Shown: positions 21,769 to 34,130 of the stretch, piece by piece
Layout: the number at the start of each line of letters is the position of its first letter
Numbering within the stretch: the stretch's first letter is position 1
Assembly (NCBI GenBank): GCA_963745035.1
Contig: CAVUVW010000010.1
Span: 140,632-204,631, forward strand
From: an uncultured delta proteobacterium
GTDB lineage: Bacteria > Desulfobacterota > Binatia > UBA9968
Length of the DNA: 64,000 nt
Reading direction: 5' to 3'
The notes under the pieces: generated by a model
The model's input: only the letters and a program-made list of their open reading frames with translations
What the model was told of the DNA's origin: nothing
Databases searched by the model: none
Position numbers and translations under genes: made by a program

Positions 21769-24100
21769 ATGGCTAATTTTTCCGTGGTCGGCCAGTCGGT
21801 CCATCGGACCGACGCGAATCCGAAAGTGACCGGGCGGGCGCTGCACGTCGGCAATATCGAGATGCCGGGCATGCTGCACGTCGCGGTGCTGCGAAGCCCG
21901 TACGCGCATGCGCGGATTGTCCGCATCGATAAAACGAAGGCGGAAAAGCTGGACGGCGTCGCGGTCGTGCTGACCGGCGCCGAAATCGCCAAGATGCCGG
22001 GCATCGATCCGCACTTCGGTCCGGCGTTTCGCGATCAGCCGATCCTCGCCGTCGAGCGGGCCTGTTACATCGGCGACCCGGTGGTCGCAGTGGCGGCGGT
22101 CGACAAACGCGCGGCGGAAGACGCCTTGCAGCTCGTCGAAGTCGATTACGAAGCGCTGCCGGCGGTGCACGACGTGCTCGAAGCGGCCGCGCCGGGTTCG
22201 CCGCTCGTCCACGAGCAGCACCGGCCGGCCAAGGCGTTTGCCGACCTCGCGCATGTGAAAGCCGGGCAGCAGTCCAACGTCTGTTACCACTTCAAGCTGC
22301 GCACCGGCGACGTCGACAAAGCGTTTGCCGAGGCGGACAGGATCTTCGAAGACAGCTTCAGCTCGCCGCCGGCGCAGCATGTGCCGATGGAGCCGCATGT
22401 GACCCTGGCGTATTTCGACGAGCACGAGCGCTTGAATATCTGGACCGCGAGTCAATCGCCGTCCTACGTGCGGACCGAAATATCCGCGACCTTCGGCATC
22501 CCGATGAACCGCATCCGGGTGCGCGTGCCATATCTCGGCGGCGGCTACGGCGCCAAGCTTTACGCCAAGCTCGAGCCGCTGTGCACGGTGCTCGCGCTGA
22601 TCACCAAAAAGCCGGTGCGCTACGCGCTCACGCGCGAAGAAGAATTCTTGACGATCACCAAGCACAAGGTCGTCACCAAAATCAAAACCGCGATCAAAGA
22701 TGGCGCGATCAGCGCGCGCAAGTGCGAAGTCTATTGGGACACCGGCGCCTACGCGGAAATCGGCCCGCGCATCGGCCACAAGTCAGGCTACACGTCGGCG
22801 GGCCCGTATCGGATTCCCAACGTGTGGATCGATTCCTACTGCGTGTACACGAACAAAGTGCCCGCAGGCGCGTTTCGCGGCTTCGGCGTGCCGCAGGTGA
22901 TTTGGGCCTACGACTCGCAGACGGACATGATCGCGCGCGCCCTCGGCGCCGATCCGGTCGAGTTTCGGCTGCAGCCGGCGTTGGACGAAGGCGAGCGCTT
23001 CGCCACTGGCACGCCGGTGAAATCGTTCGGCGTCAAAGAAGCCATCCGCCAGGCGGCGCAGGCTATCGAATGGTCAAACCCGAAAGCTTCACAGCACGGA
23101 ACCAAGCGCCGCGGCAAAGGGATCGCGGCCGGCGTCAAGGCCGTGCTCACACCGTCGATCTCCGGCGCTATCGTCATCCTCAACGCCGACGGCAGCGCCA
23201 ACGTGCTGAGCAGCACGGTGGAAATGGGCCAGGGCTCGGAAACGACGATGGGGCAGATCGTCGCCGAAGAGTTGGGCATCTCGCCCGAACGCGTTCACAT
23301 CGTCCAGCCCGACACCGACGTTACGCCCTACGACACGATCACCGCCGGCAGCCGCTCGACGTATCACATGGGCAATGCCGTGCGCATGGCCGCCGGTAAA
23401 ATCAAAAAGGAGCTGTGCGACGTCGTCGCCTCGAAGCTGGAGGTCGATCCCGACGACCTGCTGGTGCGCAACGGCCGGGTCGTCGTGCGCGGCTTGGAAG
23501 AACGCGGCATGGCGATCGGTGAGATCTTTCTCGCCAAGTTCGGGAGCCTGGGTACGACACTCGCGGCCGAAGCGGTCTGCCAGCCGAGCGCAGCACACAT
23601 GGATCCGGAAACCGGCCAGTCGGAAAAGTGCACGGAGTACTGGTTCCCTTCGGCCACGTCCGCCGAAGTCGAAGTCGATACGGAAACAGGGCGGGTCAAG
23701 ATACTGCAGCTTTTCAGCGTCGGCGACACCGGCACGGCGATCAATCCGCGCCACTGCGAGCAGCAGCTCCAAGGCGCCGCGATCATGCACTTGGGACTCA
23801 CGATGTTCGAGGAAATGATTTTCGAGGAAGGCCAGCTCGTCAACGGCTCGCTGCTCGATTATCAGGTCGCCTCGTTCAAGGATATGCCGGAGTCGGTCAA
23901 GCCGATCGTCGTGCAGGTGCCGCACGAAGACGGCCCGTTCGGCGCCAAAGGCGCCGGCGAGACCGGCGCGTTGACGGTCGCGCCGGCGATCGCCAACGCG
24001 ATTCACGACGCTGTGCGGCGTGCGCATCCGCGACTTGCCGATCACGCCGGAAAAAGTTCTGCGGGCGCTGGAGGAAGCCGAAGGACAGCGTTCGCGATTG
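21769..24100 (+). CDS. Xanthine dehydrogenase-family molybdopterin-binding subunit (indel near 24017; end approximate)
   Basis: 'KVTG', 'LRSPYAHARI', 'GGGYGAK', 'AFRGFG', 'GAKGAGE'; 'RIRDLPITPEKV' in a shifted frame. Confidence 0.9.
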
Positions 24101-24731: not shown

Positions 24732-25712
24732 TCAGATCGGCGCCGGCGAGTCGAGCTCGAAGCCGAGATCCGAGATCATCCGGTGAGCATCGGAGGCTTC
24801 CTGTCCGGGCGTGGTCAGGTAGCCGTTGACGAAGATCGAGTTCGCAGGATAGAGGCTTAGCGGCTGGAGCGAGCGCAGGTTCACTTCCCGGCCGCCGGCC
24901 ACGCGAATTTCCTTGTCAGGGTTGACGAAGCGAAAAAGACAAAGCGTTTTTAAGCAGCGCTGCGGAGTGAGCTCGCGTTTGCCTTCGAAGGGAGTGGCCG
25001 GAATCGAATTGAGAAAATTCACGGGAATCGAGTCGATGTCCATCGCGCGCAGGGTCAGCGCCAGGTCGATGATGTCTTCGTCGCTTTCGCCCATGCCGAT
25101 GATGCCGCCCGAGCAGGTGCCGATCCCGGCGTGCTTGACGTTTTCGATCGTGGCCACGCGGTCGTCGTAGGTGTGGGTGGTGACGATCTCCGGATGGTGC
25201 GCGCGGCTGGTGTTCAGATTATGATTCACGCGGCCAACGCCCGCATCCTTGAGCTTTTCGGTCTTGTCCTGATTCATGAGGCCGAGGGAGCAGCACACGT
25301 TCATACCGGTTTCTTTGCGGATCTCGCGCACGGCGTCGGCGATGTCGTCGATCTCTTTGTTGGTCGGGCCCCGGCCGCTGTTGACGATGCAAAAGCGCAC
25401 CGCGCCGGCGGCTTTCGCCTGCCTGGCGCTTTCGACCAGCTTTTCTTTGGCCATGAACGGGTAGCGGTCGATGGGCGCTTCGGACACCGAGGATTGCGAG
25501 CAATAGTGGCAATCTTCGGGGCAGAGGCCGCTCTTGGCATTTTGCAAAACGTGGATCTGCACGCGCTTGCCGTAATAGCGATGGCGCACTTTGAAGGCCG
25601 CGCTCAAAAGCTCCGGCAGCTCCTCGTCGCCCGCGTCGAGGACGGCTTGCAACTCCTCGCGTTCGGGGATGATGCCTTGAAGCGCTTTGTCGGCCAACTG
25701 CTGAAAATCCAT
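24732..25712 (-). CDS. bioB: Biotin synthase (radical SAM)
   Basis: 'NAKSGLCPEDCHYCSQS', 'NHNLNTS', 'CSGGIIGMGE', 'SIPVNFL', 'ANSIF..YLTT'. Confidence 0.95.
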   Translation of the reverse strand: MDFQQLADKALQGIIPEREELQAVLDAGDEELPELLSAAFKVRHRYYGKRVQIHVLQNAKSGLCPEDCHYCSQSSVSEAPIDRYPFMAKEKLVESARQAKAAGAVRFCIVNSGRGPTNKEIDDIADAVREIRKETGMNVCCSLGLMNQDKTEKLKDAGVGRVNHNLNTSRAHHPEIVTTHTYDDRVATIENVKHAGIGTCSGGIIGMGESDEDIIDLALTLRAMDIDSIPVNFLNSIPATPFEGKRELTPQRCLKTLCLFRFVNPDKEIRVAGGREVNLRSLQPLSLYPANSIFVNGYLTTPGQEASDAHRMISDLGFELDSPAPI

Positions 25713-25743
25713 TTCGATCCTCCAAAAAATCAGACGATTTTTA

Positions 25744-26208
25744 TCACGCGTGGTCGGGCCTTTGCAAATATGCGTCACGAGCGACGAATCTGCCCCAGAG
25801 GTACAAGAAAGCCGCCAAGACGAAGTGGAAAAAGATCGGTATAGCGCCGCCGAGCCAGCGCATCTCAGGAAGGAAGATCATCGTCAGCGCGTAGCGCAGC
25901 GCCATGCTGCCCGCGTAAGCAGCGCTGAAGCCGATAAGAAAACGCGACCAAGATGGTCGCGTAGCGGCGAAGAAGCCTGTGCCGCGCCAAATGTCCGACG
26001 CAATTTTGATCATCACCACGATCATAACGATCTGAATCGTTAGAAGGGCGGGATAGGGGATGAGACCGGAAGCCCATTCCTTGCTCGACGGCAGCCAATC
26101 GACTGAAAAGAATACGACGAGAGCTTGGCCCAACACTCGAAAGAGGAAAAGCAATGTCAGGAGCGCGAGAACATAGCCATACATCCCTGGCTTCAATGTG
26201 GGTTTCAC
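25744..26208 (-). CDS. Four-helix membrane protein of unknown function
   Basis: Hydrophobic segments, 'LFRVLGQ', 'SGLIPYPALL', 'IPIFFHFVLA'; GTGA overlap with the GH3 stop. Confidence 0.75.
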   Translation of the reverse strand: MKPTLKPGMYGYVLALLTLLFLFRVLGQALVVFFSVDWLPSSKEWASGLIPYPALLTIQIVMIVVMIKIASDIWRGTGFFAATRPSWSRFLIGFSAAYAGSMALRYALTMIFLPEMRWLGGAIPIFFHFVLAAFLYLWGRFVARDAYLQRPDHA

Positions 26209-27888
26209 GGCTGGGATTCGTCGGCGCACTGCACGATCAGTTGAATCTCGCTTGGATCTTCCGGCACGGCGGTCAAGAGCGCAGCTTTGAACTGGACGTC
26301 GCGCGCGCCGCTCTGGACGTTCGCGTCGGTTTTGCGCTCGAACCAGCCCGAGCTCATGACCCAAAGGACCGGCGCGGCTAGCCGGCGCGACTCGCGCTTT
26401 TGGGCATATTCGATATTGAGTTTGCGAAGGCACGCGTCGAACTCGCGCAGCAGCCGCGATAGTTGCTCTTGATCAGGCGAGGCACCGTGCAATTCCACGG
26501 CGAAGGCGTAGAGCGATCTTTCCACGTCGGCACAGGCGCGAAAGTGTCGCAAGGCGACGCCCGCGGCGCTCTGCGCCTGCGCCATGGCCTCAATGACTTG
26601 ATTGACGTGAAGCTTCTCGCCGGTGATGTTGGTTACATCGCGGCCTTTGCGCACGAACTCGATCAAGCGGGGTGCGGTTGTAAAAGCCGGCGACGCGAAC
26701 CACGTCGTTGATATCGTAGCGATAGAGCCCGCCGGGCGTCGTCAGGATCAAATAGTAGCTCGCGCCCTCCTCGAGCTCCGCGCAGGTGAGAACCGTCGGC
26801 ATGGGCTGCCGATTTCTGACTTCGGGAATGAACTCGTAGAAGTTTTCGTCGACGGCGAGAATGCCGGCGGAACCCGTATCGGAGATCGGCAGGGTTATTT
26901 GCGCTTCGCTCGCCATGTATCCGAGGTCGCGCACCGGGGTCTTGTCTGCCGAACCAGCGGGCGAATTCCTTCAAGCGCGTGCCCACCGTGCCGCCTTTCC
27001 AGCAGCCGATGAGCTGCAGTCGCGGCCAATATTCTCTCGGGCGGAGCGTGCCGTCGTACTTGATCAAAGACTCCAGTCGGCGCGCGCGCGCGGGGTTTTT
27101 GCCGAGACGGCTCGCCAGCGCTTTGCGCAATTCCGCCGGCAGGCTGCAACCGGGACGGATGGTGCCGTCGCGAATGTCTTTGAATGATGTCGTGCTTTAG
27201 TCTCGATTCGCGCGTCTCCACCAGCTTGAGAATCGTGCTCGGATTGGGCGTGCCGAAAAACGTAATGTCGCTGTTCCAACGCGAGGCGCATGGTGAGGTA
27301 GTATTTCGCTTCGAAGTCTTTGATCTCGGCGATTTCATAGGGAGCCGCGTAGGCATTCTGGATCCAGCTCGGACTGCTTTGGTAGATGAACCCCGAAGCG
27401 GCGCCGAAGGGGATGCCGCCCGGCGGTTCTTGCCTTCGACCGCGGGACTCACGACGCCGAGCAGCTTGCCGCTGAAAAGATCGGGATGGTCGAGCAGCGC
27501 GCGATGATACCAGAAGCGGGTGAGCTGGCGATGGTTGCGGCGCGACGCTTCGGTGACCGGGATCAGCTTGGGTTGGCCGGTGCTGCCGCTGGTCATCGCG
27601 AACATCAGCGCCGGCTCCGCGGTCAGCACGTTCGTTCTCGCCGTTCTGGGCGCGCTCGACGTAGGGACGCAGGCGCTCGTAGTCGCCGATGGCGACCTGC
27701 GCGCGATATTCGCGGAGAGAAGCGATGGCGTCGAAATGATGATCGCGGCCAAAGCTCGTGGCGCGATTGCGCGAGATCATTTTAAGCAGGAGCTTGTTCT
27801 GAACTTCTTCCGGTTTGGCGGTGAGGCTCTGCCAGCGTGCCCACTGGCGTTCGGTCAGGAATGCGGCGGCTTTCAGCAGAAGGGCCAT
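26205..27888 (-). CDS. GH3-family acyl-acid amido synthetase (several indels)
   Basis: 'TSGSTGQPKLIP', 'YMASE', 'GLYRYDINDVV', 'NITGEKL' across successive frames. Confidence 0.85.
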
Positions 27889-27894
27889 GACATC

Positions 27895-29768
27895 CTAGCG
27901 GTGTATTTCGTGCTTTGCGCCGGCGAGGCGTTCCAGGGCGTCGTCTCTGACGGTGACGCTGAGGCCGCGCGTTTTGAGCAAGCGGCGCGCGCCCGCCGAG
28001 TCCGAACGCGACGTTTTCGAAGGTGACGTCTTCGGCTAGCAGCCAGGTGCCGAAAGAACCTTCGGCGCATTGCGAGCTCGGGTAAATGCGCCGCGAACGT
28101 GCGTCCGGCGGCGGACAAGATTCCGGTTTCGCCCACCTGCGCGCCGACTTGGATCTTGATGCCGGCTTGCTGCGCCAATTGGGCGATCGCCAGACTGCCG
28201 CTGATGCCGCCGCATTTAGAAAGCCGGATATTGAACGAGTCGCAAGCGCCGAGCTCGATCAGTTGGCGCGCCTGCGCGACGGTGACGAGCGATTCGTCGG
28301 CCATGACCGGAATGCCGCAACGATCGCGCACCTGCTTCATGCCGGTGATATCGCCGGCGGCTACAGGCTGCTCGATGCATTGGAGCTGGAACCTGGCGAG
28401 GCGGTGGAGATGCTCCACCGCTTGTTCGGCAGTCCACGCGCCATTGGCGTCGGCACGCAGCTCGACCTCGGCGCCGACCGCTTTGCGCACGGCTTCCATG
28501 CGCGCAAAGTCATCGGCGCCGCCGACCTTGACTTTGATTTGCCGCAGTCCCAGGCGCGCCATCCGTCTTGCGAGAGCGGCCGCTTCCGCCGGTGCGTCGG
28601 CCGAGATCACGCCGCTGTAAACGACTTCGAGGCGGCTGGGGGGAAGTAAATCCGCCAGGGCGCAATGGTCGGCGCGCAGCGCCCAATCCAGAAGCGCCAG
28701 CTCGACGGCGCAAAAAGCGGCGTTCCACGCAACCACGCCGGAGCCGTTTTCCTGCTCCGTCCACTGCGGCATGACGCTCTCAAGATATTCCAGAGTTTCC
28801 CAGCCGGGCGTGAAAGACTCGGCGAAAATCTTCGGCGCCATTCGGTCTTGAATGTGCGCCACCATGGATGCCGTCGTCTCGCCGGTTACGTAGGAGCGGG
28901 GCAAGCTCTCGCCGTAGCCGCTCCGGCCGTCGGCTGCCGGTGACTTTGACGATCACCGAGTCGCTTTCTTCGCGGCTTTGCAGCGCATGGCGAAAGGCCT
29001 GATGAAACGGGATGCGGAGCTGATAGATCGTGATCGATTCGATGCGCCGCGCTTTTGCCGGCGCGGCTTTGCTGTGCGTTCGCCGCCGCGACGCCGCGGG
29101 AAAATAGTGGCGCACGAACAGGTCGTCGCCAAGAGTGAACGCGGCGATGTGGTCGAAGAGATCATCCGAGATTTCGATGAAAAGCCAGATAATCCCGCAC
29201 CACGCTCACGCCTTCCTCGGCATGGCGGATATCGACCTCGGAATGCAGCTCGAACCAGCGCAGCGCCGGCTTGGCGAAGCCGTACAGATTCATGAGGGCC
29301 GCGGCGATCTCGCTCGAACAGCGCGACAGCATGAATTCGAAGCTCATGGTTTCGAGCAACACCGACAAGCAAAGCTCGCGCAGGGTGGCGACCGGCACGC
29401 GCGTCGCGCAAAAAGTCGCGACCCGCCGGCGGGCGTCGACAATCAGCTCGTCGATCTCGCGTTCGGTCGAAGCCCAGCCCACGCGCCATTTCCAGGAGCA
29501 GGGCGGAATGAGGCTTCTCGTCGCTCCGAACCCATCTCTTCCAGGAGATTTTCTTTCAAAAGCGCGGCGGCGTCGGCAGGAAGCGCGGCGAAGCACAGCG
29601 CGACGATGTGCGACGACAGGTAATGGGTGCGAAAAACGTTGCCGATGAATTCGCGCGCGGCTTGCGGCGACGGCGTCGCCCGCGACGAGCCCGCGATACT
29701 CGGCGGAGCCGCGAAAATCGCGCGTGGCGTTGTCGAAAGCAAGATGTGATATGCTCGACCGAGATCAT
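27895..29768 (-). CDS. Probable fusion of a CADD/PqqC-like heme-oxygenase-like diiron domain (about 29100-29768) and an enolase-superfamily epimerase/lactonizing domain (27895 to about 29050); several indels
   Basis: Diiron motifs 'EEMGRSDEKPH', 'FEF', 'WFELHSEVDIRH'. Enolase motifs 'IKVKVG', 'DANGAW', 'IEQP', 'ADES', 'NIRLSKCGG'. The linker 'DDLFVRHYFPAASRRRTHSKAAPAKARRIESITIYQLRIPF' is a single open frame with no ATG. Confidence 0.72.
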
Positions 29769-29811
29769 TGCCCTTCCTCCGGCGCCGCCGATGCGGCCCC
29801 GTCTTCCATGC

Positions 29812-32800
29812 TTAGCGATTGGGTGTCTGCGATCGCTCCTGGGCCATGGCCTTGATTCGTCGCAAATCGACTTTTCCCGAGCCGAGGAGCGGCAGGGCTT
29901 CGACGACGTGGAGATTCTCGCGCTTGGGAATCCAGAGCTTGGGCAGATCGGAGCGATTCAGTTTGTCCCAAAGCTCGTCCCGGCTCATGCCGTTCTGCGC
30001 ATAGAATGCCACGAGTTTCTCGCCGCGCTGTTCGTCGGGCAGCGCGGTGACCGCGGCGGCGGGACTGCCGAGAACTTCGTTCATGGTTTCTTCGACCTTC
30101 ATGTGCGGCACCATCTCGCCGCCGATCTTGCTGAAACGCGAAATCCGATCGACGATGCGGATGAAGCCGTCGTCATCGACGGCGGCGATATCGCCGGTCA
30201 CGTACCAGCCGTGGCGCAGCGCCTGCTCGGTGAGCTGAGGCTGGCCGAGGTAGCCGAGCATCAGATTAGGCCCCTTCACGAGCAGCAGGCCTTCCTCGCC
30301 GGGCGGCAGCGGTCGCTCGCTGTCGCGGTCGACGACTTTGACCGCGACGCCGGGAATCGGATGGCCGACGGTTCCCGGCTTGTGGCCGATCTGTTTTTCC
30401 GCGCCGTCGAGCACGTCTTCGACGTTGACCGACACGACCGGCGCGAGCTCGGTGCAGCCGTAGCCTTCGAAGATGGTGATGCCGTATTTCTCTTGATAGC
30501 CCTTGGCCACCGGCTCGCGGAGCTTTTCGGCGCCGGCGATCACGTAACGCAGCGAGGCGAACTCTTCCTTGGTGCAGCGCCTGAGATAGCCGGCGAAGAA
30601 GGTCGAGGTGCTGATCAGCAAGGTGGCTTTGTATTTCTGCACGGTCTCGCCGATGGTCTTGGCGTCGGTGGGATTGGGATGATAGACGACGCCGAACTCC
30701 GCCAGGAGCGGCAGCCACAACGTGCCGGTGAACCCGAAGGAGTGAAACAGCGGCAGTACGCCCATGATACGATCGCTGGTTTTTAGCGCAATCGCTTGGT
30801 GGATGCCTTCGATATTGGCGACGATATTGTGGTGCGACAGCATCACGCCCTTGGGCGCGCCGGTGCTGCCGCTGGAAAAAATCACGGTCGCCAGGTCGCT
30901 CGCTTTTTGGCTTCTCCGGTGGCGGCGGCACAGCCAGGACGCGGGCAGTAAAAACGCTTTGAGAGCGGCGACTGCTTTTTGCGGCGACGAGAAGTCCTTG
31001 CGGAGCTCTTCGAGAAAAACCATGCCGGGGATATTTTCCAGACCGGCTTTGGACAAAAAGACGCGAGATGTGAGGATCGTCTCGATGCGGCACTGCTCGA
31101 TGGCCGAGGCCATCGCTTCGCGGCCGGCGGTAAAATTCAAATTCACCGGCACTTTGCCGGCGAGAAGGACGGCGATGTTTGCGAGCGCGCCGCCCACCGA
31201 GGCAGGCAGCAACACTCCCACCATCTGCTGTTGTCCGCAGCGCTTTTGGATCCAGCCGGACAACAAGAGGCTGCCGATCAGAGTCTTTCCGTAGCTCAGC
31301 TCGGTGCCGGTGGTGTCGGCCATACAAAAGGAAAACCAGCGCCGCTTCGCGCTTTCGATGAATCTCGTGTGCAGCAGATCGGCGGCGCTCGGACGATGGT
31401 CAAAGGCGTTGCTCTCGAGCACGGCAACGGCCCCCCGCACGTCCGCTGCGGTCGCATCGGAAGGAAGCGGCGATCCGAAGGAAACCGTGACGGGATCAAA
31501 CCAGCGCTTGGGCCATTTCCAAAAAAATTTCCCGTCCTTGAAGCTGAAGATGCTGCCCCACAATTGATCGAGGTGCACGGGGATGATCGGCACCGAGGTG
31601 CCTTCGACGATTTTTTCGAAGCCGCGTTTGAACGAGCGCAAACGGCCGTTTCGGCTGATCGCGCCTTCGGCGAAAATGCACACGACGTGGCCCTTGTCGA
31701 GCTCGTTGCGCGCGTGCTTGAGCGATTGCACGATATCGCGCCGATTGCTTGCCGACACCGGAATCGCGTGCATCAGGCGAAAAAGCCAGTTCAAGAATTT
31801 GATGTCGTAATAGTCGCGGTGCAGCATGAAGCGCACCAGCCGCGGCAGCGATCCACCGATCATGAACGCGTCGACGAAAGAAACGTGATTCGAAACCAGT
31901 AGCGCGGGGCCCTGGAGCGGCAGATTTTCCGCGCCGACGACCTTGATACGATACACCGTGTGCGTGAACAGCCAGAGGATCAGCCGGACGAAATAATCGG
32001 GGAGAAAATAGAGAATCGCCAGGGTGCCGGCCAAGGTCACCAAACCGGTCAGCAAAATGATCGTTTCCGGCGTGAAATCCAGCGGCGTCTTGAACAGCCA
32101 GTGGACCGCGGCGGCGAGCACGATGCCGAGGGTGTTCATGAAATTGTTGGTGGCGATCAATTGGCCTTTTTCCTCGCGTCCGGCTTTTTGCTGGAGAAAG
32201 GCGTTGAGCGGCACGGCGAATAGTCCCGCCGAGAAGCCGAGGCCGACGAGCGCGGCGGCGGTGTGCGCATAGGACGGCGCCGAGAGCGCCACCAAGCCGA
32301 GACAGATGCCCATGGCCACGGAGCCCAGCGGCACCAATCCCATTTCGATATGATCGCCGGACAGCCGTCCGGCGGCGAGGCTGCCCAAGCCGATGCCGAC
32401 CGCCAGGAACGTGCCGAGCAAGCCGATGTGAAACTCATCGAGTCCGAGCAGTTCCTTGCCGAAGAACAGCATATTGATCTGTACCAGCGCGCCGAGAAAC
32501 CAGAAATAAGAAATGCCGATCACGGTCAGCCAGAGAGGGCGATCGCGGCGCAGGCGGCGCAGGCCGTCGACGATTTCGCCGAACGGATTCAGCCGGAAGA
32601 GCTTCGCCGCGCCCGACGGCGCCACCCGGGCGATGCCCTGGCTGGTGAATACTCCTAGAATCGCAATGACCAGCATCAACAAACCGATCAACGGCAGGTT
32701 GTGCTTCCAAAGCGCAAAGATCGCGCTGCCCATGGACGTGCCGAGGATGATCGCCATGAACGTGCTCATCTCCAGGAGGCCGTTGCCGCGTGAGAGGTCC

Positions 32801-33213
32801 TTGTCGGGAAGCATCTCCGGTAAAATCCCGTACTTGGCGGGACTGAAAAACGCCGCGTGGAGGCCCATGAGAAACACCAGCACGAGCATGGACTCGAGAT
32901 GGCCGATATAAAATGCAGCGATCGCCAAAACCATGATCACGACTTCGAAAAATTTGACCGCGACCAGAATCGTCCGCTTGCTGTACACGTCGGCCAGATG
33001 GCCGGCGTAGCCGGAAACCAGCGCTGAGGGCAGAATGAACAAGAAAGCGATGATCTCGACGTAGCCGGGACCGCCGTGCACCGCGAGATTCAACGCGACG
33101 AAGGAAACGACGATCTTTAGGAAATTGTCGTTGAAAGCGCCGAGAAACTGCGTCCAGAAAAACGAGAAAAAACCAGGTTGTCTCAGGGTGTCGCTATATT
33201 TGCCGTTGCTCAT
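29812..33213 (-). CDS. aas: Aas-type MFS-acyltransferase-acyl-ACP synthetase fusion
   Basis: 'TQFLGAFNDN' MFS domain, 'NHVSFVD'/'IFAEG' PlsC domain, 'FSSGSTGAPKG'/'EGYGCTE' AMP-binding domain. Confidence 0.93.
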   Translation of the reverse strand: MSNGKYSDTLRQPGFFSFFWTQFLGAFNDNFLKIVVSFVALNLAVHGGPGYVEIIAFLFILPSALVSGYAGHLADVYSKRTILVAVKFFEVVIMVLAIAAFYIGHLESMLVLVFLMGLHAAFFSPAKYGILPEMLPDKDLSRGNGLLEMSTFMAIILGTSMGSAIFALWKHNLPLIGLLMLVIAILGVFTSQGIARVAPSGAAKLFRLNPFGEIVDGLRRLRRDRPLWLTVIGISYFWFLGALVQINMLFFGKELLGLDEFHIGLLGTFLAVGIGLGSLAAGRLSGDHIEMGLVPLGSVAMGICLGLVALSAPSYAHTAAALVGLGFSAGLFAVPLNAFLQQKAGREEKGQLIATNNFMNTLGIVLAAAVHWLFKTPLDFTPETIILLTGLVTLAGTLAILYFLPDYFVRLILWLFTHTVYRIKVVGAENLPLQGPALLVSNHVSFVDAFMIGGSLPRLVRFMLHRDYYDIKFLNWLFRLMHAIPVSASNRRDIVQSLKHARNELDKGHVVCIFAEGAISRNGRLRSFKRGFEKIVEGTSVPIIPVHLDQLWGSIFSFKDGKFFWKWPKRWFDPVTVSFGSPLPSDATAADVRGAVAVLESNAFDHRPSAADLLHTRFIESAKRRWFSFCMADTTGTELSYGKTLIGSLLLSGWIQKRCGQQQMVGVLLPASVGGALANIAVLLAGKVPVNLNFTAGREAMASAIEQCRIETILTSRVFLSKAGLENIPGMVFLEELRKDFSSPQKAVAALKAFLLPASWLCRRHRRSQKASDLATVIFSSGSTGAPKGVMLSHHNIVANIEGIHQAIALKTSDRIMGVLPLFHSFGFTGTLWLPLLAEFGVVYHPNPTDAKTIGETVQKYKATLLISTSTFFAGYLRRCTKEEFASLRYVIAGAEKLREPVAKGYQEKYGITIFEGYGCTELAPVVSVNVEDVLDGAEKQIGHKPGTVGHPIPGVAVKVVDRDSERPLPPGEEGLLLVKGPNLMLGYLGQPQLTEQALRHGWYVTGDIAAVDDDGFIRIVDRISRFSKIGGEMVPHMKVEETMNEVLGSPAAAVTALPDEQRGEKLVAFYAQNGMSRDELWDKLNRSDLPKLWIPKRENLHVVEALPLLGSGKVDLRRIKAMAQERSQTPNR

Positions 33214-33347: not shown

Positions 33348-34130
33348 ATGGAAATCACATGGTATCAGGTTCCCCGGTGGCAAGGATATCACGGTTTGCT
33401 GCACGGCTTTGCCGGCCGCGGGGGCGGAAAAAGCGCCGGGCCTTATGCCGGATTGAACACTTCGTATCGCGTCGGGGACGACCCGAAGATCGTCAGCCAG
33501 AACGTCTGCGATTTGAAGCTCGCCGCCGGCATTCACGACGGCAGGATCGTCACCATGCGCCAGGTCCACGGCGACGATATCGTCGAAGTCAAGGACAAAA
33601 AGCTCAAAGAAGCCGGCGAGGCCGACGGGATGATCACCGCCGAGCAGGATATTTTTCTTGCCGTGCTCACCGCCGATTGCGTGCCCATGCTGTTCGTTGC
33701 GCCGAAGCAGAGACTCGCCGCCGCCGTGCACGCCGGCTGGCGCGGCACCTTGGCGGGGATCGCGGAGAAGACCGTGCGGCTATTTCAAACGGAGCGCGGC
33801 ATCGAGCCGGCGGATTTGGAAGTCGCGCTCGGCCCCTCCATCGGTTCGTGCTGCTACGAAGTCAAAGACGATGTTGCCGGCCCGCTGATGAAAAGATGGG
33901 GCAAGCTGACGACGCCGAGCGTCTTTGTCCGGGAAGGCAAGTCCTATATCGATTTGCGACGCCTCAATCGGGACATTCTCCGCGCCGCCGGCGTGCCCGG
34001 AAGCCAGCTCTTTCAAGTGGGGCCGTGCACCCGCTGCGCCGCGGAAGAATTCTTCTCTTACCGCCGCGCGGGCGGCGAAACCGGCAGGCAGATGAGCCTG
34101 GTCGGTTGGCTGCCTGCCGCGTCGACTTAA
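33348..34130 (+). CDS. pgeF: PgeF/YfiH-family protein
   Basis: 'QVHG', 'LTADCVP', 'HAGWRG', 'GPSIG..CYEV', 'FFSYRR'. Confidence 0.93.
   Translation: MEITWYQVPRWQGYHGLLHGFAGRGGGKSAGPYAGLNTSYRVGDDPKIVSQNVCDLKLAAGIHDGRIVTMRQVHGDDIVEVKDKKLKEAGEADGMITAEQDIFLAVLTADCVPMLFVAPKQRLAAAVHAGWRGTLAGIAEKTVRLFQTERGIEPADLEVALGPSIGSCCYEVKDDVAGPLMKRWGKLTTPSVFVREGKSYIDLRRLNRDILRAAGVPGSQLFQVGPCTRCAAEEFFSYRRAGGETGRQMSLVGWLPAAST

Follow-up and report, generated by a model that had tools for sequence, protein, structure and literature searches.

A fused HDO-enolase gene of Binatia within an uncharacterised cassette that includes a GH3 ligase

This study concerns a gene coding for a heme-oxygenase-like dimetal (HDO) domain fused to an enolase-superfamily domain, which lies on the minus strand at positions 27895..29768 of a 64,000-nucleotide stretch of contig CAVUVW010000010.1 from an uncultured delta proteobacterium of the Binatia (hereafter, the window), together with the GH3 acyl-amido synthetase gene found downstream of it. 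Function has been validated for only about a dozen HDOs, and the available part of the review covering the superfamily (HrmI, FlcD, SznF, UndA) names no enolase partner (PMC13108848), whereas the HDO domain described here is fused or coupled to an enolase. With the CADD/CT610 para-aminobenzoate (pABA) synthase (PDB 1rcw, 8va9) it shares just 18-19% identity, and it carries Phe and Trp at the positions of Tyr141 and Tyr170. The best sequence and structure matches of the enolase domain, at 27-29% identity, are the N-succinyl-Arg/Lys racemase of Bacillus cereus (2p88) and L-Ala-D/L-Glu epimerases (1jpm, 3jva). These have in common with it the MLE-subgroup fold, the KxK motif, the D/E/D metal ligands and, in the case of 2p88, a beta-8 Glu, but the fusion has Arg for the second catalytic Lys, E-G for the DxD motif and a His and an Arg in the cap loops. 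The parallel with muconate cycloisomerase and o-succinylbenzoate synthase (OSBS) would be a one-base chemistry, with the beta-6 cation doing no more than stabilise the intermediate; both differ by score (153 vs 335 for TIGR02534 and 111 vs 201 for TIGR01928).

As regards the third enzyme, the OlsH-OlsG-OlsI system of Singulisphaera acidiphila (PMC12493201) also features a bacterial GH3 with three nucleotide-binding motifs in a small operon, and its alpha/beta-hydrolase partners have counterparts in some variants of the cassette reported below. It differs in that OlsH has no enolase or HDO partner, the available text holding no mention of enolase, epimerase or redox, and in that OlsG/OlsI-like genes were not seen in Binatia-type loci. 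In a literature survey of incomplete coverage, no paper describing the fusion or the cassette was found. All together, the architecture is real and undescribed, and it sits inside an uncharacterised cassette of known superfamilies.

Reading frame of the fusion gene

The window copy of the gene is fragmented as assembled, and the first-pass annotation had ascribed this to five single-base shifts, across which the HDO and enolase domains would be read in one frame. Alignment to relatives that are intact at 621-623 aa bears out these five and reveals three more in the enolase part, giving eight single extra bases at about 29745, 29670, 29525, 29467, 29175, 28933, 28070 and 27980. Dropping one base per site restores one open reading frame (ORF) of 621 aa with 0 internal stops, running from ATG 29768, with AGGAAGG upstream, to TAG 27897-27895, and the corrected protein is identical to that of an intact relative (L017) at 492 of 623 positions. 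The same annotation had pointed to TGA 29162 and GTG 29115 as the stop and start that two separate genes might use. Once the gene is corrected, the TGA (29164-29162) is out of frame, while GTG 29115 is the in-frame codon 217, falls within the last HDO helix and has no sequence resembling a ribosome-binding site upstream, so that the refutation which the annotation had based on them does not hold.

The junction was further checked against short-read contigs of two other studies, about 98% identical to the window; four of the 24 listed runs were compared, none of them known to come from the window's source sample. Specifically, contig 21 of run X4 covers 27556-29268, a span of 1713 bases, in 1708 letters and with 5 gaps, and contig 26 of run X9 covers the 2181 bases of 27450-29630 in 2174 letters and with 7 gaps. 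Both contigs span 29175, and their gap totals equal the number of extra bases expected in each span; the match is one of totals, the gap at 29175 falling outside the positions listed. Since the corrected gene is a single ORF and the junction is crossed by nearly identical contigs, shorter by exactly the expected number of bases, we conclude that the fusion is real.

In principle, the cassette could instead be genuinely decayed, a pseudogene in the strain of the window, and be intact in relatives. The indels are indeed concentrated in the fusion (8) and in the GH3 gene (about 12), with none in the neighbouring Aas-like, membrane-protein and BioB-like genes, and one relative (L015) retains just a remnant. 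However, the changes are nearly all +1 insertions, in-frame stops are absent, every catalytic residue is intact, and shifts are also present in other genes of the window. In addition, synonymous codon differences exceed non-synonymous ones (198 vs 129) in the same ratio as when intact genes are compared (150 vs 102), and the extra bases are absent from strains about 98% identical, all of which makes decay improbable. As a separate observation, about 20 single-base errors, nearly all insertions, are packed into 3.6 kb (26000-29800), whereas the flanking 3.4-kb Aas gene has 0; further frame shifts occur near 24017, 35080, 35750, 36050 and 37405.

Ligands and catalytic residues of the two domains

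The N-terminal domain (29101..29768, minus strand) has a heme-oxygenase-like helical fold. Its 3His/3carboxylate set is complete, as E77, H87, E144, H175, D179 and H182 align with the CADD ligands; each position is conserved in 40 of 40 alignment rows and present in the corrected window gene, where the predicted ligands are E77 (29538), H86 (29510), E143 (29338), H174 (29245), D178 (29233) and H181 (29224). The domain is a predicted two-iron oxidase of the HDO superfamily, and the CADD-type ligand pattern noticed in the first-pass annotation holds at all six positions. Its spacing of the first Glu-His pair, E-x7-H, does not: eight residues separate the pair in the window (E-x8-H) and nine in 116 of 120 homologs (E-x9-H). 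Likewise, the label "CADD-like" fits the ligand set and stops short of CADD proper. The pABA synthase model TIGR04305 scores 25 bits vs a cut-off of 200, and of the two residues sacrificial in CADD, Tyr27 and Lys152 (PMC13108848), the column aligned with Lys152 is never Lys in the 40 rows (I 25, M 13, L 2). Tyr occupies the Tyr27-aligned column in 3 of 40 rows, including those of Binatia and the window; both columns were mapped through weak sequence alignments. Elsewhere, we observed a second, more divergent HDO copy after one cassette, ahead of Aas (L145:4438-5352). Several distant HDO relatives (P0275, P0277, P0294, P0303) are devoid of the C-terminal His ligands; these may have no catalytic activity or be mononuclear.

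The C-terminal domain (27895..29049, minus strand) combines the cap and barrel of the enolase-superfamily MLE subgroup (PF13378, 182 bits; PF02746, 26.5 bits; Foldseek E 1e-20). The KxK motif, the D/E/D ligands and the Arg in "NIRLSK" are all as previously described; in the corrected gene they correspond to K410-x-K412 (28535, 28529) on beta-2, D438/E464/D489 and R513 (28226), the latter at the beta-6 Lys position. Comparing 163 domains, the beta-6 residue is Arg in 105 of 105 family rows vs Lys in 58 of 58 distant controls; a further weak match fetched afterwards (L247) has Lys there. A DxD motif on beta-8 is the mark of dipeptide epimerases. At this position HDO-linked rows have E-G (E567-G in the window, 28063), while Asp stands at both compared columns in all 58 controls. 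Family-specific residues (623-aa numbering) are H260, R290, Y384, G546 and E569-G570, the first two being H259 and R289 of the window's cap. Compared with the PDB, the enolase profile finds its top match in 2p88 (E 1e-63), which also takes rank 2 in the Foldseek search with the full model (pLDDT 81.9).

All named enolase families of NCBIfam score under their cut-offs. The best match, muconate cycloisomerase, reaches 153 vs 334.95 (TIGR02534), and the MenC models for o-succinylbenzoate synthase reach 110.9 vs 200.65 (TIGR01928), 97.9 vs 288 and 52.8 vs 130.55. An identity as dipeptide epimerase or N-acyl amino acid racemase was also rejected, the second catalytic Lys on beta-6 being replaced by Arg throughout. 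The C-terminal domain is thus a member of an enolase subfamily that has no name, in which Arg stands in for the second catalytic Lys. The first-pass annotation had envisaged a two-step enzyme that oxidises its substrate and then epimerises, dehydrates or lactonises it. Epimerisation is disfavoured, because racemases of the subgroup work with two lysines (PMC8142540) and the subfamily has Arg in every row; an oxidation followed by dehydration or lactonisation is still plausible. The beta-6 Arg would rather indicate a one-base elimination or addition; in the one-base members OSBS and MLE, the beta-6 Lys merely stabilises the intermediate (PMC12006748, bioRxiv 2022.03.03.481873), a role that Arg could fill.

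A conserved cassette in fused and split forms

The fusion is two-thirds of a conserved three-enzyme cassette, completed by a downstream GH3 ligase that had been missed in the first-pass annotation. The GH3 gene (26205..27888, minus strand) begins 6 bases past the fusion stop and contains about 12 similar single-base errors. It codes for three Pfam domains and all three nucleotide-binding motifs, taken from PMC12493201 (at 27593, 26919 and 26730), and it is the only GH3 locus found in the genome. The closest GH3s in the PDB are plant amino-acid-conjugating enzymes; the lyso-ornithine lipid synthetase OlsH was rejected as an identity (NF052613, 128.4 vs a cut-off of 620).

Genomic context was counted at 21 Binatia-type genome loci with the fusion, several of which end early, and at 80 distant loci, the best 80 of 270 metagenome matches. 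The fusion loci most often carry GH3 (18), followed by the membrane gene (16), Aas (15) and BioB (14). At the distant loci with room for the gene in question, the enolase directly follows HDO in 66 of 68 and GH3 is found in 46 of 48; the membrane gene occurs in 21 of the 80. By comparison, GH3, HDO, hydroxylase and acyltransferase are each missing from all 58 Lys-type control loci. An enolase-side search gave matches in 5 of 351, 1 of 401, 27 of 251 and 7 of 301 sampled genomes, with context examined for 5, 1, 23 of 26 and 6. GH3 is present in all five Acidobacteriota-sample loci (a phylum name inferred from the title of L041), in the one Pseudomonadota-sample locus and in all six Chloroflexota-sample loci, where the upstream slot is taken by a fatty-acid hydroxylase (L181, L233), an alpha/beta-hydrolase, a patatin or HDO. 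The sole NCBIfam match of the L181 hydroxylase is the ornithine lipid hydroxylase OlsE, at 185 bits vs a cut-off of 475. Catechol or menaquinone genes were not found among the recurring neighbours. In conclusion, the order HDO > Arg-enolase > GH3 recurs, whether the first two are fused or split.

The fused form was matched in 14 of 24 same-genus genomes and, weakly, in one of 16 genomes of other families. Thirteen of the 14 read through the domain junction in one frame; in the remaining one (L015, G015:C2) an HDO remnant stands alone after Aas, and the cassette is apparently decaying there. A search with the HDO part returned 272 proteins of 342-1091 aa, and full-length homologs with both domains, which the first-pass annotation had suggested looking for, are plentiful: among the matches listed, 115 of 120 carry PF14518 and PF13378, nearly all at 620-640 aa and under source names such as Candidatus Binatia. 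Two of the six Chloroflexota-sample loci (L241, L242) are also fused. Stand-alone HDO relatives exist at 35-58% identity, two of them named from Cyanobacteria and Pyrinomonadaceae, and HDO and enolase are separate genes in 78 of 78 parsed loci among the best 80 metagenome matches. In most other lineages, then, the two domains are encoded by separate adjacent genes. In quick trees computed without bootstrap, the enolase domains of fused forms cluster together (99) and the hydroxylase-linked L181 nests among HDO-linked rows (97). The HDO tree mixes fused and stand-alone forms inside one clade, and therefore fusion or fission occurred more than once.

Longer fusions were also found (enolase-GH3, hydrolase-enolase, hydroxylase-GH3-enolase and enolase-condensation domain). 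In P0362 an Arg-type enolase is joined to a nonribosomal peptide synthetase condensation domain, and in P0359 it lies within a 1087-aa protein of a eukaryotic collection, for which contamination or a chimeric model is possible. Among variant clusters, L243-L246 show the order alpha/beta-hydrolase > Arg-enolase > GH3, followed in three of four by a small cyclic-nucleotide (cNMP)-binding protein, near adenylate cyclases, a CRP-type regulator or a cNMP-patatin. In L098, L106, L109 and L110 an LCM-family S-adenosylmethionine (SAM) methyltransferase comes right after GH3, a possible carboxyl-methylation step.

A branch without GH3 appeared at the same-phylum loci (n=23): an LpxL-like acyltransferase accompanies the enolase without GH3 in 19, GH3 is present in 1 and neither in 3, and the two were never found together beside an Arg-enolase. 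At these loci a sensor with a common V4R-like N-terminal domain occurs in 16, FadL in 9 and a B12 radical SAM gene in 8; the V4R assignment is weak, under cut-off (E 7e-4 to 3e-3; Atlas 0.83-0.85). Some GH3-free clusters have sensors with HD-type output, and lipase-like partners (Hydrolase_4, patatin) recur beside Arg-enolase. The GH3-free cluster looks like a self-contained lipid signalling module. Across L214-L226, L229-L232, L249 and L250 we noted LpxL-like, Arg-type enolase, FadL and B12 radical SAM genes, with kinases or HD proteins sharing the unannotated V4R-like N-terminus.

The remaining neighbours in the window are less constant; the first three lie on the minus strand. A 154-aa membrane protein with three hydrophobic stretches (25744..26208), whose start overlaps the GH3 stop (GTGA), is an optional cassette member; it has no family in Pfam or NCBIfam, and its Atlas matches are unnamed clusters (0.95-0.96). 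It is GH3-coupled in many phyla, and in L102, L104, L153 and L182 it adjoins a CocE/NonD hydrolase that could cleave an amide. The intact Aas-like gene (29812..33213), 43 bases upstream of the fusion, encodes a major facilitator superfamily domain, an acyltransferase and an acyl-acyl carrier protein ligase (its L017 ortholog matches PRK08633 at 1383 bits vs a cut-off of 1221). With 15 of 21 Binatia-type and 3 of 80 distant loci, it is a frequent neighbour, not a core member. A BioB-like radical SAM gene with a BATS domain (24732..25778) is a lineage-specific neighbour, found at 14 of 21 Binatia-type and none of the 80 distant loci; in L025 it comes after Aas, at a distance of 4 kb from the cassette, and it is probably outside the pathway. 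A PgeF-like laccase-domain gene (33348-34130), divergent from aas, is kept in 11 of the 21 Binatia-type loci.

Possible reactions and their significance

All recurring enzyme partners act on acyl chains, and the cassette is likely to make a modified acyl lipid of some kind. As to the reactions, we tentatively prefer a route in which acylation comes first: GH3 would make an N-acyl amino acid, HDO would hydroxylate it and the enolase would eliminate water to give an N-acyl dehydro-amino acid. Specifically, GH3 would ligate a free fatty acid and an amino acid with ATP, as OlsH does, the only characterised bacterial GH3 that we found, which forms N-acyl-ornithine from free fatty acid, ATP and Mg2+ (PMC12493201). 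The HDO dimetal site and O2 would then put a beta-hydroxyl on the amino-acid head group. In the last step Mg2+ would hold the carboxylate, K412 would take the alpha-proton, R513 would do no more than stabilise the enediolate and the leaving group may receive its proton from E567, so that the N-acyl dehydro-amino acid is released. The invariant H259 and R289 of the cap faintly hint at a head group that is anionic or polar, for example Asp or Glu. The pathway may yield a lipid signal for export or an amino-lipid of the membrane. This order is favoured because the nearest solved relative is an N-acyl-amino-acid racemase, an OlsE-like hydroxylase can fill the oxidase slot, and GH3 and the LpxL-like enzyme are mutually exclusive, as would fit two routes to an acylated substrate.

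Several points weigh against this proposal. LpxL-family enzymes are known as O-acyltransferases, and N-acylation by an LpxL-like enzyme would be new. The GH3 lies far under the OlsH cut-off (128 vs 620), and the beta-8 Glu is also found in the racemase 2p88, hence it is no lyase marker. L165 and L168 carry HDO and enolase without GH3, L107 and L146 carry HDO without enolase, and kin are not independent, so that the locus counts overstate. The known clusters for N-acyl dehydrotyrosine employ an NAS synthase together with a nitroreductase, and neither GH3 nor enolase is mentioned in the available text (PMC12479983). Finally, a fusion of an RpfF-like crotonase to a family member points to a fatty-acid substrate, and the gene order HDO > enolase > GH3 fits a route starting from the fatty acid equally well.

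The latter route is the main rival, and we regard it as possible, if on balance rather unlikely. HDO would oxidise a carboxylate-bound free fatty acid, in the manner of UndA; the Arg-enolase would dehydrate the 3-hydroxy acid to a 2-enoic acid like the diffusible signal factor (DSF), or perform an MLE-type ring closure to a ring-acetic acid, and GH3 would then amidate the product, as plants do with jasmonate. Besides agreeing with gene order, it draws on P0300, a 572-aa protein from one Logan contig in which the crotonase is N-terminally fused to an HDO of the same family (PRK08788, 290 bits vs a cut-off of 177), although this is a single sequence on a long branch and without context. The GH3-free clusters speak for it as well, joining the enolase to LpxL-like (19/23), FadL (9/23) and V4R-like sensor genes (16/23), some with HD-type output, but the V4R assignment is under cut-off. 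Recurrent lipase-like partners and the top NCBIfam match, muconate cycloisomerase, point the same way. On the other hand, the alpha-proton of an unactivated fatty acid would be a hard target for an enolase, and the substrates of the closest solved relative are N-acyl amino acids.

A further alternative, unlikely in our judgement, is that HDO acts like HrmI on the side-chain amine of N-acyl-ornithine or -lysine and that the enolase cyclises or epimerises the product. Racemisation needs two Lys acid/bases (PMC8142540), yet Arg replaces one of them without exception; a cap residue that is Asp in 2p88 is Arg here, the +3 Lys is present in MLEs too, and the membrane fatty-acid hydroxylase that can occupy the same slot is better suited to C-hydroxylation. 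Very improbable is a scheme in which N-acyl-Asp formed by GH3 is split by the enolase into a primary amide and fumarate, in the manner of methylaspartate ammonia-lyase, and HDO oxidises the amide or the acyl chain: the cationic, family-specific H260, R290 and R515 would suit a dicarboxylate and the closest PDB GH3s conjugate amino acids in plants, but the MAAL_C match is weak (23.7 vs a cut-off of 27), the GH3-free LpxL-like clusters are left unexplained and a precedent was not found.

Beyond the acylation-first route that we prefer, a more far-reaching and doubtful reading places the Arg-type enolase at the centre of a bacterial lipid-signal system that is so far undescribed, spans several phyla and follows a jasmonate-like logic. 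In aerobes an O2-dependent diiron enzyme, the enolase and GH3 would yield an unsaturated or cyclised fatty-acyl amino acid; in other lineages a related molecule would arise through the LpxL-like enzyme, with FadL transport and sensing by a V4R-like kinase or HD protein. If true, the reaction would be new to the enolase superfamily and to the HDO superfamily alike. In any case, the cassette ties an HDO clade, an Arg-type enolase subfamily and a GH3 clade, all of them orphans without an assigned function, into one three-gene unit of roughly 3.5 kb. Among same-genus genomes 14 of 24 have it, and it extends to Chloroflexota and, judging by protein names, to cyanobacteria and Pyrinomonadaceae, which suggests that it may make a lipid or signal common in soil and aquatic habitats.
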